The notes below the pieces were generated by a model. It made no database searches. It had not been told where the DNA came from and was given only the letters and a program-made list of their open reading frames with translations. The position numbers were made by a program, and so were the translations under genes. DNA of 64,000 nucleotides from Caldisericia bacterium (lineage in GTDB: Bacteria > Caldisericota > Caldisericia > JAAYUI01): contig JAGNLA010000002.1 of assembly GCA_017999835.1 (NCBI GenBank), forward strand, positions 99,635 to 163,634. Reading direction: 5' to 3'. Positions within the stretch are counted from its first letter, which is position 1, and each line of letters starts with the position of its first letter. This document shows positions 9,858-63,398 of this stretch, in pieces.

Positions 9858-9860
9858 AGG

Positions 9861-13622: not shown

Positions 13623-13666
13623 ATGTAATATATGTTAGAATATATCGATGAGGTATTCTTTATACA

Positions 13667-14386: not shown

Positions 14387-14532
14387 TTTGACTGGTATCT
14401 CCATTATCACTTGTATTCGATTTTCTATATTTTTTCTCTAAAATACAAAATTTTGGGTAAACAGGCACGTCAAAAGACCAAAAAATTTATGTTCAAAGTT
14501 GATATTGCCTTCTCGTTGTTTAAAATTGAACC

Positions 14533-34034: not shown

Positions 34035-34055
34035 TCGCCAAGCTATCCGATAATA

Positions 34056-34087
34056 AAAAACTCCCGGCAAAACCGGGAGTTTTTTAT
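34056..34087. terminator. Bidirectional Rho-independent terminator.
   Basis: aaaaaa-ctcccgg-caaaa-ccgggag-tttttt. Confidence 0.85.
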
Positions 34088-34117
34088 TGGTTTAAGATCA
34101 AGGATTTTGCGGTATTG

Positions 34118-35227
34118 TTACTTGCCTTTTTTTGGTCTGGCTATGATGATTGCTGGCAATTGCCGGCAATTTTCTTCTTTTTTCTGACCGTCAAAGTACA
34201 GGAACGTCGAGCATCCTCCATCAAGATTGAACGCATGTCTGGCGCCAAGCGCAACCATTACCGGGCCTTCCTCTTTGATCGAAATAGCATCAGTAAACGC
34301 TACAAAAAAAGCCTTACCCTTGCCATCGATACCAAACGCTGAGCGCTGAGCGCTATAGCTTAAAGCATCGGGGTTGTACGACTTGTCCTCAGTCAGATTC
34401 CAGTAAGCCTTCCCATCTTTTACAACGGTTGGTGAGCCTCCAAAGATTATCTTGCTTTCTTTCCACTGGGAAAGGTTTACGTTGTTGCCAGGCTCAGCCT
34501 TCCAGAAAAGATTTATATGCAGGCCTTTCCTGATGTAACCTTTTGGCCATCTTGTTTTACTGCATCTGTCACGGTTTGCACCGGTGTACATGAGTACCAC
34601 GCCGTTTTTCGGGATTGCCACTGGACCTGTCGTTACATTGGTCACAACACCTTTTTCGATGACCACGCACGTGGAGGCGTAGGTGTTTGGAACCTTTGAG
34701 CCCCATTCTGACGTGTAATAGGTTGTTGAACTTGCCGATGGTGGTTGGTTGATACCGCTAACGAAAACATCCATCAAAGATGCCGGGAGCAGACTTTCCT
34801 TGACTCTCCCCTGAATCTTGAATCGGAGTCTGCCCCAGAGCCACTTTCCATCCCTGGTGACACAGAAGTTCGAACCACCGTTATAAATCCTTACTGCTTT
34901 CCCGTTAACTATATAGTGACTGTCAAACAGATAGTTGCTCCAACCGCCTGATTCATTGTGATAGGGGCCAGTCATGGCGCAGATTGCACCCTCATATCTG
35001 GCTATCTTCTCCGGGTCATCCCTTGTGAAGAGTTTCTGCTTGGCAAGACCAAGGGTTATCTCGACAGGAGCCTTTGTTCCATCAACGACACAATACTTCA
35101 CGTTGTAGGTTTTCCCATTAACTTTGACTTGTTTTGATTGAAAAACATAGTTCTCAGGAGCCTTTGCAAAAGTCAAACCAGAAAAAAGTGTCATCACAAC
35201 TGCGGTGACGGCAATAATGCGTTTCAT
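34118..35227 (-). CDS. Secreted protein, phosphodiester-glycosidase-like (NAGPA / DUF2233-type).
   Basis: Signal peptide. 'NLDGGCSTFLYFDG' resembles the NLDGGGS motif of that family. Confidence 0.45.
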   Translation of the reverse strand: MKRIIAVTAVVMTLFSGLTFAKAPENYVFQSKQVKVNGKTYNVKYCVVDGTKAPVEITLGLAKQKLFTRDDPEKIARYEGAICAMTGPYHNESGGWSNYLFDSHYIVNGKAVRIYNGGSNFCVTRDGKWLWGRLRFKIQGRVKESLLPASLMDVFVSGINQPPSASSTTYYTSEWGSKVPNTYASTCVVIEKGVVTNVTTGPVAIPKNGVVLMYTGANRDRCSKTRWPKGYIRKGLHINLFWKAEPGNNVNLSQWKESKIIFGGSPTVVKDGKAYWNLTEDKSYNPDALSYSAQRSAFGIDGKGKAFFVAFTDAISIKEEGPVMVALGARHAFNLDGGCSTFLYFDGQKKEENCRQLPAIIIARPKKGK

Positions 35228-35252
35228 GTCGCGGAAACCTCCTAATTAATAT

Positions 35253-37676: not shown

Positions 37677-37719
37677 AGTCTATTTTACGCCTGGCAACTC
37701 TCTTTTGCAAACGCAAAGG

Positions 37720-38976
37720 TTATCTTTCAACCATGTCAACAAGCTTGGGATTGTCAAAAAGAGTATCAGCCACAACGGTGAATTCGAGCTTCAGGCCACC
37801 ATAAAGTCTGAAGGTTGCAGCCGAAAAGTTTTTCGACACATCAATGATAATATCGGAAAACTCTTCAACCTGGGTCGGTTTTATCGGTATCTGGAGCTTC
37901 CAGTCTATTGAACCGGCAATAATGGCTTCATGCCAAAAGCCGGCATTTTCTATTCTGAACCTTCTACGCGCGACAGCGTCGTAGATAACGTAGAATACCA
38001 TTCCAGTTGAATTCTTCGACCTGACTGCAAAGAACCTGTCATCCAACCACGCTGCCCCTGAAACATCGGAATAGTCAGTCTTCATGTCCAGGATGTCAAC
38101 TTCCATGCCTTCGCCTTTTTTTGAAATGATGGCTAGCTTGTTATCACGTTTCTCTGCCCATAGCGTGTAATACTTCGATGGTGATGCAATCTCGCCAGTC
38201 TTGTACTCAAGGCTTGAAACCCATTTGCCTGAAGGTTTGCTGTATTCTTGCCTTTTTTCCATTTCCATATAAGCGAAGAAAGAACCGCTTCCGGTAAGAA
38301 TTCTTGGAGCAAACCCTTCTTTTCTGAAAACAAACAGGTGTTCGGATGCCATCTTAAAGAGTTCGGCGTTTGTTGTCTCAAATGGGGTGAGTCCAAGCAT
38401 ACTGCTTTTATCGGTTATTTTACCATCTTTTATGTTGTAGTTGTCAACCGCAACGCCCTTTGGCTGACTGCTAAAGGTGCAAATTGTACTCGGGAAATAT
38501 TTTACCGTTGGCTTGAGCGTTTTCATTCTGTATGAACTGCCAGTAACAACAAACTCGTCAGTCAGATCCTGGTGATACTCATGTCTGACCACAAAAGTTA
38601 GTTTTCCTGCCGTTCTCTCGATAACCAGCGGTGTCCTCCCGATCAGTCTGCCATCTTCCCAAACCTCGGAGCCTTCAGGCATATAACTGAGCTTTATCTG
38701 GTAAAGCTGGTCGAGACGGATTAAAGCGTAACCAGCAACCAGATCTCTGGGGTCAACGGTTTTGCTGTGGTATCCTGATTTGGAAATTGTTATTGTTGCG
38801 CCTGGTGGAAGCTCTATCTCGACAGGTGTTTGCCCATGCAGTTTGCCCATAACATAAACGTCCGCTTCCGGAGGCAGCGAGTCAATGTAACACATCTGTC
38901 CAAGTGGCTGTTTTGGCAGGCAGGCGGACAAAAGCACTACCAGAATTAATGAAGTCAGGATTCGCTTCATGAGCAA
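37720..38976 (-). CDS. Lipoprotein with PEGA-like domains.
   Basis: Lipobox 'LSACL'. 'VMGKLHGQTPVEIELPPG' and 'WEDGRLIGRTPL' are PEGA-like. Confidence 0.45.
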   Translation of the reverse strand: MLMKRILTSLILVVLLSACLPKQPLGQMCYIDSLPPEADVYVMGKLHGQTPVEIELPPGATITISKSGYHSKTVDPRDLVAGYALIRLDQLYQIKLSYMPEGSEVWEDGRLIGRTPLVIERTAGKLTFVVRHEYHQDLTDEFVVTGSSYRMKTLKPTVKYFPSTICTFSSQPKGVAVDNYNIKDGKITDKSSMLGLTPFETTNAELFKMASEHLFVFRKEGFAPRILTGSGSFFAYMEMEKRQEYSKPSGKWVSSLEYKTGEIASPSKYYTLWAEKRDNKLAIISKKGEGMEVDILDMKTDYSDVSGAAWLDDRFFAVRSKNSTGMVFYVIYDAVARRRFRIENAGFWHEAIIAGSIDWKLQIPIKPTQVEEFSDIIIDVSKNFSAATFRLYGGLKLEFTVVADTLFDNPKLVDMVER

Positions 38977-39157
38977 ATCATAATCCTGCGTGCATCAAGA
39001 TGCAATAAATTCGCTTTGCAAGTTCACCCCATTTTCAAAATCAATGAAAAACCGACTGAACCTGCAAAAGTATTTTAAAATATTGATTTGAGTGAGATTG
39101 CATGTTCCACCTGCTGACAAAACGCATCAAATTGGTAAAATATAAGAAGGGTACCAA

Positions 39158-40564
39158 ATGACAGTAGTCAAAAAAAAGAAAAAACACGGCAAGAAAAAAA
39201 ACAAACTCGGGAGAGTGCTGTTTCGGTTAATACTTCTGCTTGGTCTTCTTGCGTTAATTATTTTCCTGGCTGTAAAGGCTTTCAGCTGGTTGTCAGGCGT
39301 TGTCACCGGCAACCAGGAACCAGTGACGGTCTATTACTATGACGACATCATCGGCACACTCGTGCCATTCGAACACAAAGTTGATGCCAGCGACGGGCTG
39401 CCTCAGGCCATTGTACGTGAAATCTGTGCCGGACCTGCTGCAACAGATCATGCCGTCAGGACGGTTGCCAAAGGCACCAAGCTATTGTCACTGGAAATTG
39501 TCGACAAGACAGCTGTGGTCAATCTTTCAGGCGAAGCCCAGACTCCGGTTCCACCGTGTCCAGAAGACATGAGCCTGCTCTCGATAACAAACTCCCTGTG
39601 CGGAGTTGACGGCATTGAATCAGTAAGATACCAGATTGATGCGGTAACACCAGCAATCTATTGGATCGAAACAGCACTCAATCAGGAATTCAGAAAACAG
39701 GACTTAAAAATCCCGGCAGTGGAACATTTCTCCGTTTATTTTCCTGAAAAACGAGACAGATACGTCGCCCGCGAGGAAGTGACGGTTAAAAAAACCGATC
39801 TCGTAAAGGACAAAGCTAGACTCGTGCTTCAAAGGTTCATCCAGGGGCCAAAGCTTCAGGCATTGAAAGGCCCTTTATCAAAAGAAACAAAAATCCTTGG
39901 CCTGACCTTTGCCGGCAGCAAGCTGACGATAAACCTGTCATCTGCAGGACTCAACCTCAACACCGACGCAAAAGGCGAGCTGTTGTTTGCGCAATCGATC
40001 GTGTGGACTCTCACAGATATTAAAAACGTCAGGATCGTTCAGTTTCTTGTCGATGGCAAGCCAGCATCGTCAATTGGTGGGCACATCTCATTTTCAGACG
40101 AATTCACAAGGCTTGACCAGAGATTGATTGAAAACCCAGAGGAATCCGTCGGCAGCACGTCCATTATAAACCTGGCAGCCGACCTTGGTGACGGCATCTA
40201 CGTCATTGTGCCAAGGATAAGGTTCCTTACCGGCCCAGCTTTTGAACGCGAGCCTCTGGACAAGCTGTTTGCTGGCCCAAGCCCAACGGAAAAAGAACTG
40301 GAGATCATTTCCTGCATCCCAATTGACACAGAGCTCAAAGATATCAAGTTCAGCGATGGCCAAATCAATGTTTATCTCTCAGCCGAAGCCACAAAAACCC
40401 CAAACAAGGCCATTGAAGAAGCTTTCATTGAGCAAATAGTCAGAACCGCAACAGAGACCGATGAGAACAGGCTTTCCAGAGTTACCTTTTTCATAGACGG
40501 CGAAGCCAGGGAGAGCCTGCCAAATGGCACTCCCATCAGCAAAAGAGCGCGGCAGGTGCAATGA
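39158..40564 (+). CDS. Membrane-anchored protein with two GerMN (sporulation / germination-like) domains.
   Basis: Lys-rich N-terminus with a TM anchor. 'VTVYYYDDIIGTLVPFEHKVDASDGLPQAIVREICAGP' is a typical GerMN segment. Confidence 0.55.
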   Translation: MTVVKKKKKHGKKKNKLGRVLFRLILLLGLLALIIFLAVKAFSWLSGVVTGNQEPVTVYYYDDIIGTLVPFEHKVDASDGLPQAIVREICAGPAATDHAVRTVAKGTKLLSLEIVDKTAVVNLSGEAQTPVPPCPEDMSLLSITNSLCGVDGIESVRYQIDAVTPAIYWIETALNQEFRKQDLKIPAVEHFSVYFPEKRDRYVAREEVTVKKTDLVKDKARLVLQRFIQGPKLQALKGPLSKETKILGLTFAGSKLTINLSSAGLNLNTDAKGELLFAQSIVWTLTDIKNVRIVQFLVDGKPASSIGGHISFSDEFTRLDQRLIENPEESVGSTSIINLAADLGDGIYVIVPRIRFLTGPAFEREPLDKLFAGPSPTEKELEIISCIPIDTELKDIKFSDGQINVYLSAEATKTPNKAIEEAFIEQIVRTATETDENRLSRVTFFIDGEARESLPNGTPISKRARQVQ

Positions 40565-42132
40565 AAAAAATCCTGGCTGTCTCTTTGATATTCATGACAC
40601 TCTTGTGTGGTTGGCAGCCAGAAACCCAATACCTGGTTGTTGTCGACAAACCCGCTGGTGAAGTGGTGCAAGTCATTGACGGCAAATATCACTGCATTGT
40701 CAGGGCATCGCAAATACCAGACGGAGCAACCATTAAATCAGCTCTGCCAACCTTTCAGGCTCTGGGCCAATTCCATGACTACGCAAAGGTAGGCAAGGAG
40801 CTTCGGGAACTTGAGGTAAAATATCCAGGAAGATGCTCTGTATACGACATTGGTGACTCCATCGAAGGCAGAGACATCCTCGCTATAAGATTTCAACCAT
40901 TAAAACCTGCTCCGGCCATACTTTTTGTGGGTGAACATCATGCCAGGGAATGGATGAGCGTTGAAGTACCAATGGCTCTGGCAAAGCTTTTTGCCGAGAA
41001 TCCAGAAAAAGACCAAAGAATTGAACAATGGCTTTCTCAATATGACATCTGGATCGTCCCAATGCTCAACCCCGACGGTCACCAGTACAGCATCGACAAG
41101 GACAGACTGTGGAGAAAAAACAGGAGACCCCTTGTTGCCGCTTTCGGCGTTGATCTCAACAGAAACTACGCTTACAAATGGAGCAACATGGGCGCCTCTG
41201 GCAACTTCGAGTCTGATATCTACCAGGGAGCAGATGAATTCTCGGAGCCCGAGACTCAGGCGATTCGAAATCTTGCCGACAACATCCCTGTCTTTGGTGC
41301 AATAACCTTTCACACTTATGGCAATATGATCATCCATTCCTGGAATTACGGTTATGAAAAAGCTCCGTATTTTGAAAAACTCAGAAATATCGGTCTTGCC
41401 ATGGCAAAACTCTCAGGCCCAAACAATGATTCAGAAAGCAAAAAAACAGACTATCTTTACGAGGTAATGGAAGGTTCGAAACTCTATCCTGCCTCGGGCG
41501 ACATGTGCGACTACCTCTACTCTACGTGGGGAGCACCAACATATACTTACGAAATGACTCGCTCGGCTGGTGGATTTGTCAACGATGAAAGCGAAATCCA
41601 ACCAACAGTTGACCTTGTTGTTCCAATGGCTCTTGAGTTCTTTGACGCCCTGCCAAAAGAGTTTTGCATGGTCTACGGCAAAGCTACCGATGGCAACGGC
41701 AACCCTGTAGCAACTGATCTTTTCTACAAAAACATCGAGTTTGCAATCAAGACAGACCCACAGACCGGAAGGTTTCATCATGTTCTCCCCAAAGGGCAAG
41801 GTTTTATCCGCTACAAAGTCAATGGCAAGGATACGATTTTGAAGGTGGATTTCCAAAAGGACACCAACATTTTGAACCTGATTGTAGGTAAATCCGACGT
41901 CTTTGACCTTTCAGGCGACGTTGTCGACAGCTCTGGCCAACCTTTCAAAGCAATCGTTTCTCTGTACGACCAGAAAAACACCGAAATCGCATTATTTAAA
42001 AACGTCTCTCATTTCTCGTTCAAAAGCGTCCCAAGCGGCAGCTATATCCTAAAGGTGTTAGGCATTGACCAAGTCAGGGAATACCAGATAACACTCTCCC
42101 GCAACCTTTCCATCACGGTCACAGCAAATTAA
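40561..42132 (+). CDS. Zinc carboxypeptidase (M14 family) lipoprotein with a C-terminal beta-sandwich domain.
   Basis: 'GEHHAREWMSVE' (HxxE zinc ligands), 'NPDGHQY', 'FHTYGNMIIHSW'. Confidence 0.8.
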   Translation: MKKILAVSLIFMTLLCGWQPETQYLVVVDKPAGEVVQVIDGKYHCIVRASQIPDGATIKSALPTFQALGQFHDYAKVGKELRELEVKYPGRCSVYDIGDSIEGRDILAIRFQPLKPAPAILFVGEHHAREWMSVEVPMALAKLFAENPEKDQRIEQWLSQYDIWIVPMLNPDGHQYSIDKDRLWRKNRRPLVAAFGVDLNRNYAYKWSNMGASGNFESDIYQGADEFSEPETQAIRNLADNIPVFGAITFHTYGNMIIHSWNYGYEKAPYFEKLRNIGLAMAKLSGPNNDSESKKTDYLYEVMEGSKLYPASGDMCDYLYSTWGAPTYTYEMTRSAGGFVNDESEIQPTVDLVVPMALEFFDALPKEFCMVYGKATDGNGNPVATDLFYKNIEFAIKTDPQTGRFHHVLPKGQGFIRYKVNGKDTILKVDFQKDTNILNLIVGKSDVFDLSGDVVDSSGQPFKAIVSLYDQKNTEIALFKNVSHFSFKSVPSGSYILKVLGIDQVREYQITLSRNLSITVTAN

Positions 42133-42195
42133 ACAATCAACACAATAAAACCTTTTGCAAACCACTGGAGTATTCTTTTTAAAAGGAGGCAATCC

Positions 42196-44733
42196 TTGAA
42201 CAAGATTGTTATGCTTGTGTGCGCCTTGCTGGCCATTCCAGCATTTGGCATTCATAATTCGTCATCAGAGGACTTGCCCAAACCCTGGCCGCAGTTTGCC
42301 TGTGACATTGCGCACTCGTCTGTGGCTTCGGACAAATGGGACTACAAAACGTACAAAACACCGGCATGGATACTGACAATGAAAGGCACAGACGGATTTT
42401 CTCGAAATCCAGTCATTGACAAAGGCTTGATGGTTATCGCCGATTCACAGCGGATTTATTGCATGGACGTGATCTCCGGTAAACAGAAATGGTCATCGGA
42501 CTTGGTCAACGGATGTGGCGGATCCTGCGCAATAATAGGCGATCGCGTGCTTGTTCCGACGTCAGGGAACATTCTTTCAATCGATTTGGCCACCGGCAAC
42601 GTTCAGGCTTCCCTGAGCATCGGATCAGCAACATCGCCAAGTTTTTATACAGATGACTACAGCAATACAGGCTTCTACTTCGGAGTCCCTGGGAAACCAG
42701 GCTACGCTGCCAAATACGACATAGATTCAGGCAGGAAAAGATGGGAGATGCAGACTGAATGGGGTTGCCCGGGTGCAATCGCCGTCAACACTGAGGAAGG
42801 CATCGCCGGTGTAACATCCCACTACAGTATCTATGCTCTCGATGAGATGTACGGCTCAATGGAAAGCCAGATTGAGACAGGAACCCAGTCTTTTGCAGCA
42901 ACGTCAGCCATCGACAGGTTCTGCGTCTACACCATGTCAGGCGGTGAAACATATTTGCTGCCAAAACTTTACGAAAAGTGGAACCCGATGATCATCGACT
43001 GTGGAGGATTCACCTTCTGGCCACCTGCCCAGTTTGGCAAAACACTCATCCAGGGCAATCAGGATGGCAGGCTGGTCAACTTCGATTTAACAGGCAAGGT
43101 CATCTGGGATGTCCAAATGCCAGGGCCGGTGACAAACGGTTCAACGGTCATGGACGGAACCGTGCTTGTGCCTGTCGGTGGCTCGGACAAAACAAAGTCA
43201 GGTGTCTACATCATGGATGCCAAAACCGGCTCGCAGATAGATTTCATCAACATTCAAGCCGAGTATGTCTTCCAGCCAGTCGTTGCCTGGCAGAGGATGT
43301 TTGTCGAGTATGGAAAGAACGAAAAATATACCAGCCGCTGGCTTGCCTGTTACGGCAAAAAACCAAGACCAGCCGACCAGGAACCAAAGCTGACAATCAA
43401 AGATTTTGTCATCACGACACAAGTGGCGTGGATGGGCGAAACACTCAAACAGGCAACACTGACAAACTCAGGCAAGGTCAAGCTCGACCTGCTGCTGACC
43501 GGCGACACGCTCATCACTCCAACCGTTGAAACAATGACGCTTGCGCCAGGTGCATCGGAAACACTGAGGATAAAAATTGTCGGCAAAAACAAACCCGGCA
43601 AATACACGCAAAAGATAAACTGCCACATCACCGATCCCGATTATGGCGACCAGTCGCTTGGCTACATAACGGCAATCATCACCATCACTGAGGCTGCTCC
43701 ACCTGAACCGCAGGATCAGCCGCCAAACCCGCCAAGAGAGCTGCAGGCAAGGGTGGTTTACGACTACATTCAACTGGAGTGGAAGCAACCTGACAAAGGA
43801 ACAGAACCTCTTGGGTACAACGTTTTCAGAACCGTCGGCACCGATGCGTTTCCAAAAGACCCGATAAACAAGTCCAAAATCACCGACCTGACATACGCCG
43901 ACAAGGAGGTCATTGCCGGGCTGCAATACACCTACAAAGTCGTTGCCCTTGGCAAGGCTGGATTGGTGTCCGACCCATCAAACACCGCAACAGCCGAAAT
44001 CCCAATAAAGCTGCTGGCTGTCAAGAACCTGAAAGCAGAAAAACAAGGCGAGGGCGTGCTTTTGACCTGGGAATCCGAGCAGCCTGTGACTTTTGTAATC
44101 GAGCGCAACGGCGACCAGGTAGGCATGACCTCAAATCTTCTGTTTTCTGACACAAACCCTCCCCAGGAAAAACTTATCTACAAGGTGTTTCCGAAGAAAG
44201 ACAACCAGTTTGGCCCTGAAGCTTTTGTCATCATTGACCTTTCTCCCCAAAAGCCACCTGACCCAGACCCAAATCCGGAACCCGAGCCTGAACCGCAACC
44301 AGAGCCGACGCCTGAAGAAAAAGAAGTCAAAATCGTTGTCGAGTTCACGGTTGGCAAGGAGATCGCCACAGTCAACGGAACGGCCAAGTTTTCAGGCGCA
44401 ATCCCGTTTATCAGTAACGGCAGGATGATGGTTCCATTCAGGTTTTTGGGTGAATCCATCGGCGCAAAGGTCAGCTACACATCAGACCCAAAAACCGGCA
44501 AAGTGTTGACTGTTACTTATGAGCTTGCCGGCAAAACCGTCCAGCTGGTCATGGGCTCAAAGACTGCAATTGTTGGCGAAGACAGCGTTGAGCTTGACGC
44601 CCCTCCACAGATTTCAGGTGGCAAAACCTATGTTCCTCTCAGGTTTGTCACGGCAGCGCTGGGTGGGACCGTGGACTGGAACGCTACAGAAAAGAAAGCA
44701 ACGATAACATATATCTCGAAGGTGAAGCCGTAG
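42196..44733 (+). CDS. Secreted PQQ-like beta-propeller / Fn3 protein with a Pro/Glu/Asp-rich linker and a C-terminal CAO-N domain.
   Basis: TTG start with RBS AAGGAGG. Linker 'PDPDPNPEPEPEPQPEPTPEE'. C-terminal 'NGRMMVPFRFLGESIGAKVSY...GGKTYVPLRFVTAALGGTVDW'. Confidence 0.55.
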   Translation: MNKIVMLVCALLAIPAFGIHNSSSEDLPKPWPQFACDIAHSSVASDKWDYKTYKTPAWILTMKGTDGFSRNPVIDKGLMVIADSQRIYCMDVISGKQKWSSDLVNGCGGSCAIIGDRVLVPTSGNILSIDLATGNVQASLSIGSATSPSFYTDDYSNTGFYFGVPGKPGYAAKYDIDSGRKRWEMQTEWGCPGAIAVNTEEGIAGVTSHYSIYALDEMYGSMESQIETGTQSFAATSAIDRFCVYTMSGGETYLLPKLYEKWNPMIIDCGGFTFWPPAQFGKTLIQGNQDGRLVNFDLTGKVIWDVQMPGPVTNGSTVMDGTVLVPVGGSDKTKSGVYIMDAKTGSQIDFINIQAEYVFQPVVAWQRMFVEYGKNEKYTSRWLACYGKKPRPADQEPKLTIKDFVITTQVAWMGETLKQATLTNSGKVKLDLLLTGDTLITPTVETMTLAPGASETLRIKIVGKNKPGKYTQKINCHITDPDYGDQSLGYITAIITITEAAPPEPQDQPPNPPRELQARVVYDYIQLEWKQPDKGTEPLGYNVFRTVGTDAFPKDPINKSKITDLTYADKEVIAGLQYTYKVVALGKAGLVSDPSNTATAEIPIKLLAVKNLKAEKQGEGVLLTWESEQPVTFVIERNGDQVGMTSNLLFSDTNPPQEKLIYKVFPKKDNQFGPEAFVIIDLSPQKPPDPDPNPEPEPEPQPEPTPEEKEVKIVVEFTVGKEIATVNGTAKFSGAIPFISNGRMMVPFRFLGESIGAKVSYTSDPKTGKVLTVTYELAGKTVQLVMGSKTAIVGEDSVELDAPPQISGGKTYVPLRFVTAALGGTVDWNATEKKATITYISKVKP

Positions 44734-44766
44734 AAGAACTGAAAAATTCTTCCTCTCGACGACGTG

Positions 44767-44836
44767 CCGGCGCTTGTGGACTTCCTCTACAAGCTCGAGA
44801 GGCACGACTACGGCCCATTCTGGCAAAAAAATATTC
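44767..44836 (+). repeat. Copy 2 of the 70-nt direct repeat, a non-coding fragment identical to the 3' end of CDS 3768..4970.
   Basis: 68/70 identity to 4891..4960. No start codon in frame. Sits between the stop of the propeller gene and the 3' end of the SIR2-like gene. Confidence 0.9.
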
Positions 44837-44865
44837 TGTTGTTCCAACAAACGAAATATGGTTAT

Positions 44866-46713
44866 TTACGATATAGGAAATGGAGGCGAAACAGCATACC
44901 AGTTCTGAGCTGATGTTTTTACTTGAATCGTATAATAACACGATGTTTGAGGATTTTTGATTCCAGAACTTTTATCAAATCTAATATCAAATTTTTCACA
45001 TTCTTTTATTGTCATTGGCAAAGTAATTGTTAATAAATTGCCATTAACCGTAGGTTTTATTTTTATCTTATACCATTTACTTATATTTCTAAAACCAATT
45101 CTTTTTAATAAACATTGTAGAAAGTTATGCTTGCTAACTGAGATCGTATTATTATCAATATTTTCTGGAATTGTAAAACCGATTGGGAATGCAATAGTAA
45201 TTGTATCTATATCATTAACCAATTTGATTTTATTATTCACTAAACGAATCTCTATGTCATCACTCATGCCAAGTTTATTATTCATAAATATAATAGGATT
45301 ATTTCTAATAAAATGAATTGTGTCTCTAATCTCGTATGGCTGAGATTTAAGCTTGTCCTCAGCGTTGTTAACTGCAATGCTTAAGTGATATAATCCACTT
45401 TTTGATGTGTTGATTAGGCGACAATTCGAATTGAAAACAAGACATAGTTTTCCTGATTGTTCTATCTTAAATCTATTTTGGAAAAAAATTCTAATTTTAT
45501 TATTATTTATGTATTCTATATTTTGCGCATGTTGAACTCCATAACCATAATAACTCCCAGGATACAAGATAATATTATCAGCAACTACCCTTTTGAAAAA
45601 TCTCAAATTTTTTAATAGAGATTTTTTTCTACCATGTTGAAAATCTATCTCAATCAATTTCAAATATTTATTTTTACTTTTACAGACATAGTTAAAAGCA
45701 ATAGCATATTCAGCACCAGATTGTAATGTCGCATTATGATTTACAGTAACATTTAATTCAGAAATAAAGATTTTTGGTATTTTTTGCTCATAATCGTCAT
45801 AGGAGACTTGAGCATTATCAGTTGATGAAAATTTCTCTGACTTTAATCTTTCATAGCTTTTCCATAATTGTTTAAAAAAATCATTACCATCTTGGACAAT
45901 TGGCTTAAAATCCAGCGAATCTAATAATTCTTTTGATTCTTCTTTAAATTCATACTTATCGATCCAATAATTGGTATATGCTTTATTATTAGTATATGAT
46001 TGTTTTATTATCTCTCTCAATCTAGAATCATATTTTGCTGACCAACCACAGATTATTACACCAAAATTATCGAAGATATCTGTCAATAATGAGTCGACAC
46101 TGGAATCAAAATTAGAAAGTTCTTGACTAGTATTTTTTAGTTCAGTATCCAGATAATCACCACATATTTTTATAAGAGATAAGTTTCTATTGGGCCAATC
46201 AGCAATAAAAGGTTTTTGATCAATAAAGCTATTCTTATCTATTATTCTTGAATAACCGATATCCTCTAGATGCAATTCCATTAATCTATCAAAGTTTGTT
46301 GTAATGATAATTTTTATTACATCTTCTTTTACTAATTTTACAATTACTTTATGTGCATTATCATCTTTGGAATTATATACGGTATCCATCTTGTGGAATG
46401 GTTCAAAGATTTCTTTTAAGTATAATCTTTTATCAGAATTTTTATTAAAATACCAGTCAATGATATCTGAATAATCAATATTTGTTTTACCTGTTTCAGT
46501 ATAATACCATTTCTCATAATCATTAAGATTCGAAAACTTTGATGAATTCATGCTGGCATACTTCTTTTTAATCAAATCCATTGATATCGAGTATGCCGTT
46601 GGTATTCCAGCAGATGTTGATAAACCAGAGCCAATTAATAGCACATATCCCCATTTATTGTTATCAAGCATACTTGCAATATTAGATATGGTTGAATCAT
46701 TTGAAGGTGACAT
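44866..46713 (-). CDS. SIR2-like (SIR2_2 / DHS-like NAD-binding) domain protein with an unrecognised ~360-aa C-terminal domain.
   Basis: N-terminal 'GSGLSTSAGIPT' (sirtuin GAGIS..GIP-like) and 'TTNFDRLME' (TTNYD-like). No Cys4 zinc ribbon. The gene is very AT-rich compared with its neighbours. Confidence 0.7.
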   Translation of the reverse strand: MSPSNDSTISNIASMLDNNKWGYVLLIGSGLSTSAGIPTAYSISMDLIKKKYASMNSSKFSNLNDYEKWYYTETGKTNIDYSDIIDWYFNKNSDKRLYLKEIFEPFHKMDTVYNSKDDNAHKVIVKLVKEDVIKIIITTNFDRLMELHLEDIGYSRIIDKNSFIDQKPFIADWPNRNLSLIKICGDYLDTELKNTSQELSNFDSSVDSLLTDIFDNFGVIICGWSAKYDSRLREIIKQSYTNNKAYTNYWIDKYEFKEESKELLDSLDFKPIVQDGNDFFKQLWKSYERLKSEKFSSTDNAQVSYDDYEQKIPKIFISELNVTVNHNATLQSGAEYAIAFNYVCKSKNKYLKLIEIDFQHGRKKSLLKNLRFFKRVVADNIILYPGSYYGYGVQHAQNIEYINNNKIRIFFQNRFKIEQSGKLCLVFNSNCRLINTSKSGLYHLSIAVNNAEDKLKSQPYEIRDTIHFIRNNPIIFMNNKLGMSDDIEIRLVNNKIKLVNDIDTITIAFPIGFTIPENIDNNTISVSKHNFLQCLLKRIGFRNISKWYKIKIKPTVNGNLLTITLPMTIKECEKFDIRFDKSSGIKNPQTSCYYTIQVKTSAQNWYAVSPPFPIS

Positions 46714-46804
46714 AATAAGATTATATATACTTTTTCAAGTAATAAAATACATTTATGTATACCATTCTGGAAAAATCCGAACTTTTCCGTTATCCTATCC
46801 CACC

Positions 46805-48445
46805 ATGGAACCAAACACACAAAAACCAAGCCAGCGCGTGGCGATATCGGCAAAGCTTGCCCAGGCGCTGCAAAAGATGGATGTAGAATTCACGCCCGAC
46901 GTCATGCGTCCGGACTCTCCCGACCACGGCGACTGGTCCAGCAATTGCGCCATGGCGCTTGCGCGCCAGATGAAGAAGGCGCCGAGGATGGTTGCCGAGG
47001 AAATAATAAAAAACCTTGACCAGACGATGTTTGAGAAGGTTGAGATTGTTGGCCCGGGGTTCATGAACTTTTTCCTCAAGCCAGAGGTTGTCACTAAATT
47101 TGTAAAGGACGCCTGCGACGAAGGTTTCGGCAGGTCGGACTTTGGCAAGGGCACAAAGGTCATGGTGGAGTTTGTCTCGGCAAACCCAACGGGGCCGGTA
47201 ACGGTTGCAAACGGTCGCGGCGCACCTCTGGGCGACTCGATTTCCAGATTGCTTGAGTGGGTCGGTTACAGCGTTCACCGTGAGTTCTACGTCAATGACC
47301 GAGGCTCCAAAGTCACAAACCTTGGACGCTCGCTTGAACAAAGGTACAGACAGGCGCGAGGTTTGGATTGGTCGATGCCTGAAGAAGGGTATCCAGGAGA
47401 ATATCTTCTCGATATCGCAAAGGAAATGGTTCCTGACTTTGGCAACACCCCTTTTGACATGCCAGACTCCGAAAGAGTAGAGTTTTTTGGCAGGCAGGCT
47501 GTCACCAGAATGATCGCCTGGCAGGAAAAGGTATTTGAAAAATTCGGCATAAAGTTTGACCTTTGGTTCTCAGAGGCCAAGATGGCGGCAGAAGGCAAAA
47601 TCGAACAAACTCTTGAAAGGCTGAAAAAAACCGGCTGCATCTACGAAGCCGAGGGTGCAACATGGTTGCGTTCAACGGACTTTGGCGATGACAAGGATTT
47701 TGTCGTGGTCAAATCAACAGGTGACGCCACCTACACGCTTGGCGACATAGCCTACCACATTGGCAAGTTTGACCGTGGCTTTGACCTTGCAATCGACCTG
47801 ATGGGTGCCGACCACCATGGCCACGTTGGTCCGATGCACGCAGGTCTTCAGGCTTTGGGCATCGACCACAACAGGCTTGAGTTTGTCCTCTACCAGCTGG
47901 TGCACCTTTTCAGAGGTGAGGTTCAGGTCAAGATGAGCAAGTCCAGCGGCGAGTTTGTCACGCTCGAGGAGCTGCTTGATGAAGTTGGCGTGGATGCTGC
48001 CAGGTATTTCTACCTCATGCGTTCCAGCGACACCCATCTGAACTTTGACCTTGACCTGGCAAAGTCACAAACAATGGACAATCCGGTCTATTATGTACAG
48101 TATGCCCATGTCAGGTGCTGCGCGATCATGGATGATGAAAGGGCAAAAGACATCGATTTGTCCAAAGCATCGCCGTTTGAGCACCAGCTTGAGAAGGCGC
48201 TTGCCATGGAGCTTGTGACTTTCCCGGACGAGGTGAAGGCGTCAGCGCTTGCCAGAACCCCTCACAGAATTGCCGCATATGCGGAGAAAATTGCGTCAGC
48301 ATTCCATTCCTTCTACTACGAGTGCCACGTGCTAAACGAAGAGCCGGCCATAAAAGCCAGACGCATGCTGCTTGTGAAAGCCACAAGAAACGTCCTGAAA
48401 GGCTGTCTTGACATTTTGGGAGTGAGCGCGCCAAACAGGATGTAA
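46805..48445 (+). CDS. argS: Arginyl-tRNA synthetase with a non-canonical HIGH region.
   Basis: 'VEFVSANPTGPVTVANGRGAPLGD', 'YVNDRGSKV' and 'KMSKS' are present. 547 aa from the ATG at 46805. The upstream ORF extension was rejected because it overlaps the SIR2 gene start. Confidence 0.85.
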   Translation: MEPNTQKPSQRVAISAKLAQALQKMDVEFTPDVMRPDSPDHGDWSSNCAMALARQMKKAPRMVAEEIIKNLDQTMFEKVEIVGPGFMNFFLKPEVVTKFVKDACDEGFGRSDFGKGTKVMVEFVSANPTGPVTVANGRGAPLGDSISRLLEWVGYSVHREFYVNDRGSKVTNLGRSLEQRYRQARGLDWSMPEEGYPGEYLLDIAKEMVPDFGNTPFDMPDSERVEFFGRQAVTRMIAWQEKVFEKFGIKFDLWFSEAKMAAEGKIEQTLERLKKTGCIYEAEGATWLRSTDFGDDKDFVVVKSTGDATYTLGDIAYHIGKFDRGFDLAIDLMGADHHGHVGPMHAGLQALGIDHNRLEFVLYQLVHLFRGEVQVKMSKSSGEFVTLEELLDEVGVDAARYFYLMRSSDTHLNFDLDLAKSQTMDNPVYYVQYAHVRCCAIMDDERAKDIDLSKASPFEHQLEKALAMELVTFPDEVKASALARTPHRIAAYAEKIASAFHSFYYECHVLNEEPAIKARRMLLVKATRNVLKGCLDILGVSAPNRM

Positions 48446-48466
48446 GAATTTTTATCTAATCACTAT

Positions 48467-48498
48467 AAAAAGATGCTCTCAAAAAGAGCATCTTTTTT
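48467..48498 (+). terminator. Rho-independent terminator of argS.
   Basis: aaaa-agatgctct-caaaa-agagcatct-ttttt. Confidence 0.85.
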
Positions 48499-48586
48499 GT
48501 TATCTATTGCCATTGTCAGTTAAATTAAATACTATCTGGTCATCAATTTGGGAGTCAAGCACCCCACAAAAAAAGGATACAAAGAC

Positions 48587-49615
48587 ATGAACATTGAATT
48601 TAGAAGGCTTGGGTACGACGAGATAATAAACAACTGCTTTGCCCAGTTCAAAGCATTCAACGATGCCTTCAGTAAAGACATTTATCCTGATGAAAACCCG
48701 GACACCGAAGACAGGCTCAAGGAGATAATTCACGAACGTGACTGCGATTTTTACAGGTTCACTGCCTTCGACGGTGACAAGATAGTTGGCTCGATATCCT
48801 CAGGCAAGCTCAAGCCGGAGCATCCAGAATACAGCTCTAGAAAGCATGTCAGCTGGCTTGAAGGTTTTGTCCTTCCACAGTACAGAAGGCGAGGGATTGG
48901 AAAGCAGCTCGTTAGGCAAGCACTCGAAATGGCTTCCCAAAACGGTGTCGAGGTCGTCAAACCCTACACCTATTGCGATGAAGGCTTTGCGTTCATCGAA
49001 AGCCTTGGCGGAAAAGCGGTTTCGGCTCAGTCTGACAGGACACTGGAGCTTGACAAACTCGACTGGTCTCTGGTTGAATCCTGGCTCAAAATCCCTATTG
49101 GAGACCTGAAACTGGAATATTTTTCAGAATTCTCAGATGAGCTTATGGAAAGGCTCATTGATGTTTCATTTGCCTCGACGCAGGAAGTGTCTGCCATGGA
49201 CAGCTGCGAGGTGCCACCAACCCTTGATGGTGAAAGGCATTCGCTGAGGGAATTCTCAGATTACATTAAAAATACTGGTACGAGATACCATTGTCTGCTT
49301 TTGACCGACGAAGCCGGAAACATCCTTGGTTACACTGAAGGAACCATTCCCCCGGAAGACCCTGATGTTTTCAGGCAAGCCATGACAATGGTCTGGAAAC
49401 ACCATCGTGGCAAGGGTTATGGCAAGTTCCTCAAAGCAGCGATGCTCGACTTTATCCGCAAAAACCTGCCAAACATAAAAAAACAGGTGACAGGCAACAA
49501 CGACCTTAATGCCCCGATGCTTGCCATCAACCTAAAGCTGGGCTTCCAGCTTGTCAGGCAGTGGAAGGTCTACAGAGTTGAGGTGGCAAAAGCGCTGGAC
49601 AATCTCAAAATGTAA
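48587..49615 (+). CDS. Double-GNAT acyl-CoA N-acyltransferase. Paralog 1 of 4.
   Basis: 343 aa. The N-terminal half has 'VLPQYRRRGIGKQLV'. The C-terminal half has 'VWKHHRGKGYGKFLKAAML...TGNNDLNAPMLAINLKLGF'. RBS aaaaagga. Confidence 0.7.
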   Translation: MNIEFRRLGYDEIINNCFAQFKAFNDAFSKDIYPDENPDTEDRLKEIIHERDCDFYRFTAFDGDKIVGSISSGKLKPEHPEYSSRKHVSWLEGFVLPQYRRRGIGKQLVRQALEMASQNGVEVVKPYTYCDEGFAFIESLGGKAVSAQSDRTLELDKLDWSLVESWLKIPIGDLKLEYFSEFSDELMERLIDVSFASTQEVSAMDSCEVPPTLDGERHSLREFSDYIKNTGTRYHCLLLTDEAGNILGYTEGTIPPEDPDVFRQAMTMVWKHHRGKGYGKFLKAAMLDFIRKNLPNIKKQVTGNNDLNAPMLAINLKLGFQLVRQWKVYRVEVAKALDNLKM

Positions 49616-49711
49616 ATTCCAAAGCTATTGCCGACAAAAGTTAATTCCAATATCATCCAAAAACAAGAAACACGTGGGAGGTCCACGACCACAGACAAAG
49701 GAAATATTGAT

Positions 49712-50755
49712 ATGAACATAGAAATTAGAAAAGTAGAAAAAGAAGAACTTCTGGGAGATTTGTATCAGACCTACAGAATCCTTGCAATCAGGGACTTTGC
49801 CGACATGTACCCGGAGGAATCTACATTGAATGATGAGATCATCAGAACAAGACTCGAAAACAAAAATTATGATGAAAGCAATTATTTTGCTTTTTTGGAT
49901 GGGCAAATGATTGGCTATTCCGATATTAGCAGACCCAGCAGAAGCAATCCTGCTTATGAACAAAACAAGAACAGAATTGGTTTTTGGGCTTTTATTTTGC
50001 CAGAGTATAGAAAACAGGGGCTAGGTGTAAAGCTACTTACGATGGCACTTGAAGATCCACTGCGTGAGTATATCCAAAGGCTCAGAACTTCAGCGTACAG
50101 CGCCGATGGTCGAAGGTTCGTCGAGTCGCTCGGTGGCAAGGTTGTAGAAAAAAGTTCCACACGAGAGCTTCTTGTCAAAGACATTGACTGGGAGCTGGTA
50201 GAATCATGGAAAAACATGAGTTTCTCTCCAGACAAAAAACCGGTTATAGAGTTTCATAGTAAAATTGACTGGCAAATTGTTGAGCAATTCCTGGACCTGT
50301 CTTTTGAAATAAACCTGGAACTCAGCCAGATGGACAATCGCGAGTTTATTCACACCAGAGAGTCTGAGGAGCATGACTGGAAAGAAATGCTGGAGTACTG
50401 GGGTAAAACTGGCTTTGAAAATGAATGTTTCATTCTGAAAGATTCTGCTGGTTCAACCATTGGCTACACAATGTGCATTTTCTCATCCAGAGATCCAGAC
50501 ACTGTCGGTCAAAGTATGACTGCTGTCTGGAAGCACCTCCGAGGCAACGGTTATGGACAGCTCCTGAAAGCTTTGATGCTTGAAAATATTAGGACAAACC
50601 ATCCGCAGATAGTAAAAATCAACACCAGCAACAACGATCTCAACGACCCAATGGTGGGTATAAACAGAAAGCTTGGGTTTGTAGAAAAAAGTCTCTGGTG
50701 TTCGTATATTGTCGACTACAGTGAGGCAATTGAAAAACTGAGGAGCAAAAAATGA
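49712..50755 (+). CDS. Double-GNAT acyl-CoA N-acyltransferase. Paralog 2 of 4.
   Basis: 'MNIEIRKVEKEELLG', 'ILPEYRKQGLGVKLL', 'VWKHLRGNGYGQLLKALML...TSNNDLNDPMVGINRKLGF'. Confidence 0.7.
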   Translation: MNIEIRKVEKEELLGDLYQTYRILAIRDFADMYPEESTLNDEIIRTRLENKNYDESNYFAFLDGQMIGYSDISRPSRSNPAYEQNKNRIGFWAFILPEYRKQGLGVKLLTMALEDPLREYIQRLRTSAYSADGRRFVESLGGKVVEKSSTRELLVKDIDWELVESWKNMSFSPDKKPVIEFHSKIDWQIVEQFLDLSFEINLELSQMDNREFIHTRESEEHDWKEMLEYWGKTGFENECFILKDSAGSTIGYTMCIFSSRDPDTVGQSMTAVWKHLRGNGYGQLLKALMLENIRTNHPQIVKINTSNNDLNDPMVGINRKLGFVEKSLWCSYIVDYSEAIEKLRSKK

Positions 50756-51783
50756 ACATAGAAATTAGGAAAGTTGACAAGGAAGAGTTGCTGGGTGAAT
50801 ATTTTGACGCATACTGCAAAATTGTCAGACTCCAACGAGCCCAGTTTGCTCCTGACAATCCACCACCATCAAACGAGCGAATCCGAATTGGACTGGAGGA
50901 AGCGAGCGAGGACTGGCAGGTAATACGGTATATGGGATTTGCAGGAATAGATGCAATTGGATTGCTGGAATTTGGTTCTTTGAAACCTGAGTCACCCGAT
51001 TATTCCAAAAACAAGGAGATTGGCTGGCTGGACATTTTTATTGTCGACTCACACCGAAGGCAAGGAATAGGCACGAAATTTGCCAAGCAGGCAATCTTGA
51101 CTTTGAAGGAGTTAGGAGTCACAAAAATAGATGCAGGTTCAGTTTCTCAAAATGGTCAGCGATTTTTGGAACAACTTGGGGCAACTCTTAAATCAAAGTT
51201 TTCTGACAGAAATCTTGATTTGAACACGATGAACTGGAGCATTGCCGATGACTGGCTTGAAATCAGGAACAAGCTGCCAGATAAATGGTCAATTGAGTTT
51301 CATGTCGAGATTTCTGACAATTTCATCGAACAGGTAATTGATGTAAGTCATGACATTGTCTGTGAGTTAAGGGCAATGAGTAGTTACGAGTTTGTATCAA
51401 CACGCGAGTCAGAAATTAAGGACTGGAAAGAATTTGCCAGATGGGTTGAAAAGACTGGCGAAAAATATTCATGTTTCCTCATAAAAGATGATTCCGGCAA
51501 AGTCGTTGGGTACACTGAAGGCGGTTTCCGCAATGACAACCCAGCTCAGTTCCAACAATATGTCACTGGCGTAACAAAATCCAAAAGAGGTTTGGGACTT
51601 GGAAAACTACTCAAGGCGTTGATGCTTGATTATATCAGACGAGAACACCCCGAAGTCCAAAAAATCTCAACCGGCAGCAACGATTTGAACGACCCAATGC
51701 ATGGCATCAATAACATCCTTGGCTTCACACCCGGTGTTACCCGTTCAAACTACCGCATCTTAGTTGAAGAAACCATGAAATAA
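50752..51783 (+). CDS. Double-GNAT acyl-CoA N-acyltransferase. Paralog 3 of 4.
   Basis: 'MNIEIRKVDKEELLG', 'IVDSHRRQGIGTKFA', 'TKSKRGLGLGKLLKALML...TGSNDLNDPMHGINNILGF'. ATGA overlap with paralog 2. Confidence 0.7.
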   Translation: MNIEIRKVDKEELLGEYFDAYCKIVRLQRAQFAPDNPPPSNERIRIGLEEASEDWQVIRYMGFAGIDAIGLLEFGSLKPESPDYSKNKEIGWLDIFIVDSHRRQGIGTKFAKQAILTLKELGVTKIDAGSVSQNGQRFLEQLGATLKSKFSDRNLDLNTMNWSIADDWLEIRNKLPDKWSIEFHVEISDNFIEQVIDVSHDIVCELRAMSSYEFVSTRESEIKDWKEFARWVEKTGEKYSCFLIKDDSGKVVGYTEGGFRNDNPAQFQQYVTGVTKSKRGLGLGKLLKALMLDYIRREHPEVQKISTGSNDLNDPMHGINNILGFTPGVTRSNYRILVEETMK

Positions 51784-51793
51784 TGGAGTAAAG

Positions 51794-52792
51794 ATGAGTC
51801 AGGGAATTTCAATCAGACAAATTGAAAAACATGACCTGCTTGGTGAAAGCCTCAAGGCGTTTCTTGCATTCTTCAAAACCATGAACCTTGAAACATATCC
51901 AGAAGAAAAACCCTGGAGCGACAACCAGATAACCGACATCATAAAACAGAGCAGTGACAAGATGTTTCGGGTGTGCGCTCTTGATGGCGACAAGATGGTT
52001 GCCTATTCATCGCTTGACTGGAGCTTGTGCAAGCCTGGATTTGGCAGGAGTTTCATTAACGTCCTGCCAGATTACAGAAGACAAGGTCTTGGCTCAGATA
52101 TTTTTAGCCAGGTTCTCGGCCATACCCGAAACATCGGTCTTTCAAAACTGATATGCCAGACACATCATCAGTCCGGCGAGGAGTTCATGACCAGCCGGGG
52201 TGGAAAGATTGTTGCCAAAGAGTCCACCCGGACGCTTTTGATGACCAGTGTCGACTGGAGCCTTGTCGACAACTGGATTGCCATAGGGAAAATCCGCAAT
52301 CCATCGCTGAAACTTATCTTTTCAAGGCATGTTGACGACTCGATGATCCCAGGTTTGGCAACAGTCTCGCTTGAGATTGAAAGGGATTTGATGTCTCTAA
52401 ATGCAAATCAAATAGACATTTCTTACGAGTTTGAGGTTGAGGAATGGAAACGAAGGCAAGCTGAAGCGACAAGCCCAAACCAGTCAAGAATATTTCTATT
52501 TGTCCATGACGGCTGTGGCGAGATTGTCGGATACTCCAACGTTTCCATTCAAAACAGCGACCCCACCTTTGCCAGACAAGGCATGACCGCTGTCAAAAAG
52601 GATTGCCGCGGTGCAGGCATAGGAAAGCTCCTCAAGGCAGCCATGCTTCGATTCATCAAGGATAATCATCCTGAAATTGTAAAGGTTTCCACAGGCAACA
52701 ACGACTTGAACGCGCCAATCGTTGCCATCAACGAAAAGCTTGGTTTTACCAAAGGAGTTTGCTGGACAAACTTTGAACTTGAAGTAAGTTAA
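51794..52792 (+). CDS. Double-GNAT acyl-CoA N-acyltransferase. Paralog 4 of 4.
   Basis: 'VLPDYRRQGLGSDIF', 'VKKDCRGAGIGKLLKAAML...TGNNDLNAPIVAINEKLGF'. Confidence 0.7.
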   Translation: MSQGISIRQIEKHDLLGESLKAFLAFFKTMNLETYPEEKPWSDNQITDIIKQSSDKMFRVCALDGDKMVAYSSLDWSLCKPGFGRSFINVLPDYRRQGLGSDIFSQVLGHTRNIGLSKLICQTHHQSGEEFMTSRGGKIVAKESTRTLLMTSVDWSLVDNWIAIGKIRNPSLKLIFSRHVDDSMIPGLATVSLEIERDLMSLNANQIDISYEFEVEEWKRRQAEATSPNQSRIFLFVHDGCGEIVGYSNVSIQNSDPTFARQGMTAVKKDCRGAGIGKLLKAAMLRFIKDNHPEIVKVSTGNNDLNAPIVAINEKLGFTKGVCWTNFELEVS

Positions 52793-52857
52793 TAAGTGAA
52801 CCTGAACCCTGCCAAGGCTTGTATTCCTTTCAGGATTGGTTGTTTGCCTGGAGGAAT

Positions 52858-55158: not shown

Positions 55159-55430
55159 GTAGACGAAACCGCGCCTGTCCATCTTGCTGTGTTTTCAAAC
55201 GGTTTTTACGATAAAAAGAACACCAACCCTGAGAAAAACAAATATGCCTATGTCGGTACCTATCTTAGCGATGAAAACCCAATGTTGATCTACATTGGCA
55301 GCTGGATAACAAAATAAAGATAATACTTATTTAATAATTTTTATTAACTGATTTTTATAAAGTTGTGATTATTACATAAATAATTGGTATTTCAACTCCT
55401 TTTTCATTACAATCAGGTTACATCACGTTC

Positions 55431-55459
55431 TTGAACATTTCACTGCATGCATTTATCCT
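55431..55459 (+). promoter_or_regulatory. Candidate sigma-70 promoter for the cbi operon (TTGAAC-N17-TATCCT).
   Basis: Hexamers at 55431..55436 and 55454..55459. RBS GGAGG lies 7 nt before the cbiM ATG. Confidence 0.35.
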
Positions 55460-55492
55460 CACCACCTGTGAAATCATTATGGAGGTTTATTC

Positions 55493-60579: not shown

Positions 60580-60617
60580 CTACTTGATAAATAGTCAAAT
60601 TAGATCATTATATTCAT

Positions 60618-63293: not shown

Positions 63294-63398
63294 AAAAATA
63301 CATCCAGAGAGGATTATGGGCTTTATCGGTTAAGCAGGTAATAAATAAATGTATTTGCCAAATTTACATTTGTCAAATAGGTTATTTTTACAGAGATT

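Follow-up and report, generated by a model that had tools for sequence, protein, structure and literature searches.

A 70-nt repeat in the genome of a Caldisericia bacterium is a gene-fragment scar, next to a polymorphic candidate defence cassette, at a breakpoint of recombination or rearrangement. Scars of this kind are known; this one comes from an uncultivated phylum, the Caldisericota. In the window, by which we mean the whole 64-kb stretch of DNA analysed here, one copy of the repeat is the end of a functional lipoprotein gene, and the other is a dead remnant of that gene's last ~78 nt, which marks an old breakpoint and on which no recombinase acts. We regard this second copy as a recombination or rearrangement scar and not as an att site because sister lineages carry the complete lipoprotein gene at the spot that the relic occupies. 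The window lineage and a 7%-diverged sister lineage have a propeller gene, 22 nt and the relic where others have the lipoprotein gene. The functional gene lies 39.9 kb upstream of the relic, beside blocks that neighbour the lipoprotein gene in outgroups too.

The precise duplication of a gene's 3′ end beside an AT-rich defence gene can mimic attL/attR without an integrase, which calls for caution in the prediction of island boundaries. For the Caldisericota, the comparison documents a defence-gene site, between the lipoprotein gene and argS, that is empty, occupied or filled with a divergent allele, as well as frequent homologous exchange between ~8%-diverged lineages and a repeatedly rearranged neighbourhood with small hairpin repeats at its breakpoints. 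Further, gene-fragment relics can help to tell in which order and direction rearrangements took place.

Two copies of a lipoprotein gene end

The functional lipoprotein gene (3774–4970, forward strand; 398 aa, lipobox LAGC) is conserved in Caldisericales. The original prediction had the first copy of the repeat end a coding sequence at 3768–4970; the gene end holds, and the actual start is the ATG at 3774. The protein matched no family in Pfam or NCBIfam, and its C-terminus is uniform, with 11 of 11 homologues stopping 2 residues past a WQ/WT motif. The sequence is encoded on contig JAHZTK010000088.1 of MAG GCA_020047475.1 (Caldisericia bacterium), and the window belongs to a Caldisericales MAG.

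The 70-mer (TCGACGACGTGCC...CCATTCTGGCA) occurs exactly twice in the 64-kb window, at 4891–4960 and 44756–44825, both on the forward strand and 39,865 bp apart from start to start; shuffled sequence gave no such match (0 of 100 shuffles). Copy 1 corresponds to the final 23 codons (minus 3) of that lipoprotein gene. The claimed identity of 68/70 and the position of copy 1 are correct, and copy 2 had been placed 11 nt too high, at 44767–44836. Both differences between the copies (CCA/CCG and GTC/GTG) are synonymous in the lipoprotein frame, as predicted. Copy 2 lies 22 nt past the stop codon of the propeller gene and 40 nt ahead of that of a SIR2_2-domain gene, gaps that confirm its proposed place between the propeller gene and the AT-rich SIR2 gene. 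It was also rightly described as a start-less, non-coding relic: a start codon is absent, and two in-frame stops (TAG at 44731 and TGA at 44740) precede it. As a truncated homologue of part of a functional gene that lacks a start codon, copy 2 has the properties of a gene-fragment pseudogene.

In every locus fetched from relatives, the 70-mer has at most one copy, always as the lipoprotein gene end or as the relic. A dispersed REP/MITE-like repeat was rejected on these counts, two copies per 64 kb and no more than one per fetched locus; the many dispersed copies that would have spoken against the original prediction did not appear in the window or in these loci. A search of JGI metagenomes with the 47-nt exact core gave 0 matches.

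On the left of the relic, the propeller/Cu-amine-oxidase-N gene (42196–44733, forward strand, 845 aa) is followed by a 22-nt spacer, AAGAACTGAAAAATTCTTCCTC (44734–44755), whose right end is the true breakpoint. The first 18 nt of the spacer, together with the AG of the propeller stop codon, are predicted to fold into a hairpin, GAAGAA-N8-TTCTTC (44732–44751). The spacer has no homology to the sequence 3′ of the propeller gene in two relatives, L019 and L022. A scan with the propeller protein returned one weak irrelevant match. An extension of the relic, in decayed form, by ~25 nt further left (a TA-AAG-AA-CTGAAA similarity, in the propeller frame) was rejected as unproven. Read in its original lipoprotein frame, the relic continues the phase of the propeller gene, with the two stops between them; this match is probably a coincidence (1 in 3), and it would fit a former in-frame fusion.

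The same locus in related lineages

The related genomes are Caldisericales MAGs, whose contigs we name by type: R (L004, ENA ERZ28615113; L005, which is the L003 contig, ERZ15185865; and L006, Logan ERR4682896), R0 (L020, Logan SRR32942125, 69.6 kb), V (L017, Logan ERR14964774, and L018, Logan ERR14964780) and W (the window lineage and L002, ERR14064716). Four independent contigs of ~92%-identical relatives, the three R types and L020, have a single copy of the 70-mer. The R types come from different samples, and their lipoprotein is 94% identical to the window's at the protein level and ~92% at the DNA level. All three have the order 353-aa gene, lipoprotein gene, SIR2 (minus strand), and L004 runs on past SIR2 into argS and GNAT genes. 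In BLAST alignments they correspond to window 2378–4968 and to the sequence from 44756 on, the two being joined by a single 70-mer. L020 is 96% identical to L004. The contigs of L006 and L020 pass unbroken through the lipoprotein gene end, so that no second copy with common 31-mers is present in those genomes.

These alignments show that the relic derives from a lipoprotein-SIR2-argS adjacency. It agrees with the R-type gene end at 69 of 70 positions and has the R-type bases at both sites that distinguish it from copy 1. At three variable codons, L013 and the R types read GTT-CCG-GTG, the relic GTG-CCG-GTG, L020 GTG-CCA-GTG and the window's lipoprotein gene GTG-CCA-GTC. The R-type lipoprotein gene ends in ...TGGCAGAAGGAATGA, followed by a hairpin (CTCGGCTTCGCCGGGGTTTT) and the SIR2 stop codon. 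Around the lipoprotein stop codon the relatives have GAAGGAATGA, as against AAAAAATATT at the window's copy 2. Beyond AAAAAATATT the hairpin is deleted in the window, and alignment to the R types resumes ~20 nt before the SIR2 stop codon. The stretch at 44826–44865 (forward strand) is thus, by alignment to L004, L005 and L006, the decayed lipoprotein stop codon and the remainder of the lipoprotein/SIR2 intergenic region with its terminator hairpin lost. No terminator-like site and no canonical terminator was found around the relic; the plus-strand fold there is moderately stable (z = −2.7). Copy 2 thus follows the R-type lipoprotein-SIR2-argS order together with all the DNA on its right, and its left edge, between 44755 and 44756, is the only breakpoint. 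The sharp edges and unrelated flanks of the original prediction therefore describe the left side of copy 2, and the right side has continuous, decayed homology to the relatives.

The V types place this breakpoint in time. They are 92.6% identical to window 32210–44825, and their contigs end with the propeller stop codon, an identical 22-nt spacer and a decayed relic (TCTCG directly followed by CGCATGTGGACTTCCTCTACAAACTCAAGAGGCACGACTACGGCCCATTCTGGCAGA), which has a 12-nt deletion and 3 substitutions and is more decayed than that of the window. Assembled with k=31, these contigs break off at the very point at which a 30-mer is also found in the gene end. L002 is 99.98% identical to window 44779–56671, covers the relic core, SIR2 and argS, and has the opening base of the 47-nt exact core as its own first base, where a k=31 assembly of a two-copy repeat is expected to break. 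The same junction with a more decayed relic in the V types implies that assembly did not create the junction and that it is old, and the identical spacer implies that the relic boundary was already sharp in the common ancestor of W and V, on which ground the extension further left was rejected. Indeed, the alignments show that the left junction predates the W/V split. An assembler error, in which paths through the 47-nt exact core were mis-paired or the junction itself was made, is hardly credible. The source is a short-read MAG, and no single independent contig spans propeller, relic and SIR2; yet the left junction recurs in two further samples (L017 and L018), the right part recurs in L002, and reads of 100–150 nt span a 47-nt repeat. 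The alternative pairing would moreover give the lipoprotein an aberrant C-terminal extension of 18 residues, at odds with the shared end of its 11 homologues.

The R types look like what a deletion between the two copies would produce. Their origin by simple deletion from the window was rejected as impossible, since the natural gene end, with its stop codon and hairpin, is retained in them. The same observation weighs on a reversible process, in which RecA acts at the 70-nt repeat and the 39.8-kb segment between the copies is either integrated or excised and relocated, with R as the excised state and V as the circle or an alternative junction. Its junctions would be propeller-relic-GAAGGAATAA-tRNA-Thr in the circle and lipoprotein gene-SIR2 in the deletion. 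Such switching is very improbable. The R types do resemble a precise deletion between repeats, and the V-type relic ends in ...GGCAGA as the gene-type continuation does, unlike the window's GGCAAA; but the R types have the natural gene end and hairpin and not the window's continuation of copy 2, L006 (k=31) is unbranched at the gene end, with no second 31-mer-sharing copy in that sample, no replication or partition genes were found in the segment, and the arrangement in L022 differs. We also give little credence to 'portable homology', in which the segment or the SIR2 cassette moves via RecA at the 70-nt repeat, R and V are alternative states, and the relic is kept by selection or conversion.

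Identity between the window and its relatives is a mosaic, ranging from 84 to 100% per 200–300 nt against L004 and L020 (2378–4968 and 46761–50340) and against L017 (32210–44825). It reaches 100% at 2578–2777 and 99% at 35210–35509, with 84–88% nearby. This pattern indicates frequent homologous recombination among ~8%-diverged Caldisericales lineages.

The window's relic core has no private substitution. Between W and V, the 80 nt that make up spacer and relic show 3 substitutions and one deletion, which is less than the 11–22% by which third codon positions differ at the neighbouring 3′ end of the propeller gene. On the few differences counted, this low divergence may reflect selection, a recent local exchange, or conversion by the functional copy. 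It may be, though we consider it improbable, that the relic is more than a scar and has been kept by conversion or selection, as a homology arm for SIR2 cassette exchange with lineages of the other order or as a SIR2 3′ UTR antisense to the lipoprotein mRNA; this would be compatible with either origin discussed below. The low divergence and the plus-strand fold would fit such a role. The numbers are small, however, the V copy has lost 12 nt and carries 3 substitutions, local coalescence times vary, as the identity mosaic implies, and there is no covariation.

To the right of the relic, the SIR2_2-domain gene (44866–46713, reverse strand; 615 aa, start possibly M15) is a single-gene candidate defence cassette with 26% GC, as against ~46% in its flanks. 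It matches the PADLOC profile PDC-S65 with E = 1.2e-71, residues 6–305 covering positions 16–308 of 592 and the C-terminal half remaining unmatched. The resemblance to known families (SIR2_2, PDC-S65 and the SIR2 domains that accompany short pAgo proteins) is confined to the N-terminal ~300 residues. No match was obtained for the C-terminal ~310 residues, and full-length relatives fall in two clusters only. An AT-rich upstream region (46714–46760) leads to the right edge of the cassette at ~46760. Homology to L020 resumes at 46761, with the ancestral argS leader (ACCATTCTGGAAAAATCCG...) and argS (46761–48445, forward strand, ATG at 46805), a candidate homologous anchor. The first 400 nt of argS are 96–97.5% identical to L020, and ~89% further on.

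SIR2 is absent from L020, 57–59% identical at the amino acid level in L004 and L005, and 91% identical at the nucleotide level in L006. The order in L020 is protease, miaA, 353-aa gene, lipoprotein gene, a 370-nt spacer of small hairpin repeats and argS. The cassette of L004 (2614–4541) replaces L020 4321–4690, and by this alignment the 370-nt spacer is the empty site of the SIR2 cassette. The cassette's left edge lies past the intact lipoprotein gene and hairpin, and its right edge at ATTCTGGAAAAA, ~45 nt upstream of the argS ATG. The 70-mer is found on the left side of the cassette only, and the right edge has just the 9-nt CCATTCTGG. Homology to L020 across the argS leader implies that CCATTCTGGAAAAA upstream of argS is ancestral and that the 9 nt which it has in common with the relic's end are no target duplication. 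CCATTCTGG at both cassette edges was accordingly rejected as a target-site duplication, the right-hand copy existing in the SIR2-less L020.

Variation is also seen beyond argS. Window 48548–52792 holds four tandem double-GNAT acetyltransferase paralogues, mutually 31–38% identical, whose number and sequence vary among lineages (L020 and L004). Homology to L020 skips from window 52200 to 54992, a second presence/absence difference within a few kb of the SIR2 site: the stretch at 52201–54991 (ORF 52819–55158, 779 aa, no Pfam family) is in the window and L002 and absent from L020.

The segment between the copies

The DNA between the 70-mer copies (4969–44755, 39.8 kb) is core genome and not a mobile element. 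Its last gene is the propeller gene, and it also carries tRNA-Thr(CGT), tRNA-Gly(TCC) and tRNA-Tyr(GTA), genes for a radical SAM protein, UDP-glucose dehydrogenase, a glyoxalase, metK, thyX and GH2, a response regulator, a Germane-domain protein, an M14 peptidase and several PQQ-propeller/CuAO-N surface proteins. In GC content (0.40–0.52) the segment resembles its flanks. Pfam scans and precomputed Pfam hits, covering large ORFs (~120 aa and up) between and flanking the repeats, revealed no integrase, resolvase, transposase, relaxase, replication or partition gene in the segment. We assign the segment to the core genome because it has housekeeping genes, normal GC and no recombinase, and because its parts are elsewhere or inverted in other lineages.

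Site-specific integration, with the 70-mer as the att core of the SIR2 cassette or as attL/attR of the whole 40-kb segment, is consequently highly improbable. The outward form is right, since direct repeats of a gene 3′ end bound 39.9 kb and the relatives join its flanks via one copy, so that they look like an empty site. Set against this, an internal recombinase, a unitary mobile cargo and a core at both ends of the SIR2 cassette are lacking. No integrase, transposase or relaxase occurs among the ORFs of the segment or in the rest of the window, in line with the original statement that no integrase is visible and with the absence of recombinases from the Pfam scan of the window's large ORFs. 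The segment has three tRNAs, metK and thyX, has host GC, and is not coherent in other lineages, its sub-blocks being separated or inverted in L013 and L022. The original idea of a 40-kb attL/attR element therefore fits in form alone. The alternative idea, that SIR2 arrived on an element carrying this att core and was later separated from its target, is right to link SIR2 with the lipoprotein 3′ end and to have a rearrangement part the two, as the order in L004, L005 and L006 attests. Its att mechanism is not supported: the 70-mer is on one side of the cassette only, the empty site in L020 lies downstream of the intact gene and outside its 3′ end, no recombinase is present in the window, and the CCATTCTGG match at the other cassette edge is ancestral argS leader. 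IMG/VR yielded no match to the 27-nt 3′ part of the core and no SIR2 protein relative.

Block A (756–4968), the unit to which the functional gene belongs, comprises an SDH-type protease gene (reverse strand), miaA (reverse), the 353-aa gene (forward) and the lipoprotein gene (forward), and its flanks vary by lineage. Homology to L020 runs exactly from 756 to 4968, at 92.4% identity; both flanks differ between the window and L020, and L013, L007/L008 and L004 have other neighbours again. Downstream of the lipoprotein gene, the window has a tRNA-Thr block (4971–9860) and then block B (9861 onwards). L013, whose lipoprotein is 84% identical at the amino acid level, has block B directly (window 9861–15686). 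L007 and L008 (70%) have an FGGY kinase, with block B at the other end of a flipped block A in L008, and the R types have SIR2 or argS. The downstream neighbour is thus a different one in every lineage. A and B adjoin in the outgroups L013 and L008, which makes the functional gene's location in the window look ancestral.

Other rearrangements are visible nearby. In L022 (~88% identical at the nucleotide level), window 5153–8563 is inverted right after the propeller gene, with no relic; L022 1–7672 corresponds to window 40821–44732 and 5153–8563. The inverted block carries tRNA-Tyr, UDP-glucose dehydrogenase, tRNA-Gly, radical SAM and tRNA-Thr genes, and the contig ends inside tRNA-Thr. In several Caldisericales lineages, most places where synteny breaks near the lipoprotein block have small intergenic hairpin repeats (TCTCCC..GGGAGA plus GAAATCGTGTGGCTTTGCCACCGATTTC): at 9470–9551 and 9732–9813 in the window, with a partial copy at 6322–6356, and in relatives at L020 4309–4496, L013 8939–9143, L008 6555–6810 and 11374–11421, L022 3989–4009 and the ends of L019 and L014–L016. 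An Rfam search returned three tRNAs only, leaving these repeats without a family. They could be a substrate of recurrent inversions and translocations. Towards the end of the window, AT-rich stretches at 60001–61000 (GC 0.36) and 63001–64000 (GC 0.34), against ~0.46, may be additional foreign or intergenic islands.

Origin of the relic

The route that we favour, tentatively and from comparative genomics, is import from a sister lineage by homology-facilitated illegitimate recombination (HFIR). A relative with the R-type order would have supplied the lipoprotein 3′ end, terminator, SIR2 and 5′ argS to an ancestor that had the propeller gene upstream of argS. The first joint would have been a homologous crossover in argS, and the second an illegitimate joint 22 nt past the propeller gene. 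Such an event would have brought in the AT-rich SIR2 candidate defence gene, and 78 nt of the donor's lipoprotein gene would have hitch-hiked with it, after which the stop codon and part of the terminator would have decayed.

This route is favoured because it takes one event and leaves the resident gene in its ancestral neighbourhood, because the relic has R-type bases at both sites that differ from copy 1, and because mosaic identity points to frequent exchange. Further, the first 400 nt of argS are unusually L020-like, and the cargo, a candidate defence gene, is of a type that typically moves horizontally. The inserted stretch is contiguous and collinear in the donor-type contigs L004, L005 and L006; the break between 44755 and 44756 is abrupt, in the V types too, and homology on the argS side is continuous. 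The pre-insertion state, a propeller gene directly upstream of argS with no relic, was present in none of the retrieved contigs. Import has the drawback that block A must also have been translocated, independently, in the R lineage. The divergence between W and R in SIR2 (~91% nucleotide identity, L006) and argS is about at the genomic level, so any import would be old and would have left no clean tract. To our knowledge, natural transformation has not been documented for Caldisericia.

The main rival to import is a duplicative translocation within the genome, which we consider possible but doubtful. Here the ancestor would have had the order lipoprotein-SIR2-argS, block A or the segment would have moved by duplication, and the old block A would have been deleted down to ~78 nt, either through a tandem duplication and two deletions or through an ectopic copy of A. 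The difference between the window and the R types amounts to precisely one 39,865-bp segment with the direct repeat at its ends, and neither flank of block A is the same in the window as in L020. The neighbourhood is rearranged in almost every sampled lineage, and the near-genomic divergence of SIR2 and argS from the R types is consistent with vertical descent. However, two or three events would be needed, they would have to restore by coincidence the A-next-to-B order of the outgroups L013 and L008, and the 87 nt upstream of A in L020 have no similarity to the sequence that follows the propeller gene.

The feature can be set beside known systems. The attL and attR sites of integrative elements occur in the 3′ ends of tRNA, tmRNA and protein genes, and the likeness is a direct repeat of a gene 3′ end bounding a segment that relatives lack at that place. 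The Caldisericia locus differs in having no integrase, a housekeeping and host-like cargo, an incoherent segment, and a repeat that does not flank the SIR2 cassette. Hot spots for defence genes occur between conserved core genes, and the site between the lipoprotein gene and argS resembles them in being empty, occupied by the AT-rich SIR2 or occupied by a 57%-identical SIR2 allele. In relation to PDC-S65, the N-terminal SIR2 half alone matches, and a defence role here is that of a candidate.

The closest parallels to the favoured route come from recombination of foreign DNA. The HFIR mechanism has been described (PMC3240628) and discussed for comparable displaced gene ends (PMC5361080), and its products are reported for Acinetobacter baylyi, Streptococcus pneumoniae, Pseudomonas stutzeri and E. 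coli conjugation (PMC3240628, and primary papers that PMC5361080 cites). There as here, foreign DNA would have one homologous anchor (in our case argS) and one illegitimate junction, donor sequence adjacent to the cargo hitch-hikes, and recipient DNA between the joints is replaced; the difference is that our proposed event is read from comparative genomics, is old and concerns an uncultivated organism. Orphaned 3′ gene fragments are also known from Rhs/T6SS effector-immunity loci ('C-terminal displacement'; PMC5361080), and references there, where repeated, displaced 3′ ends likewise lie beside horizontally exchanged conflict genes and are explained by one-sided homologous recombination. In the window, by contrast, the fragment comes from a conserved neighbouring lipoprotein gene and not from a variable toxin domain, and it stands singly, outside any array.
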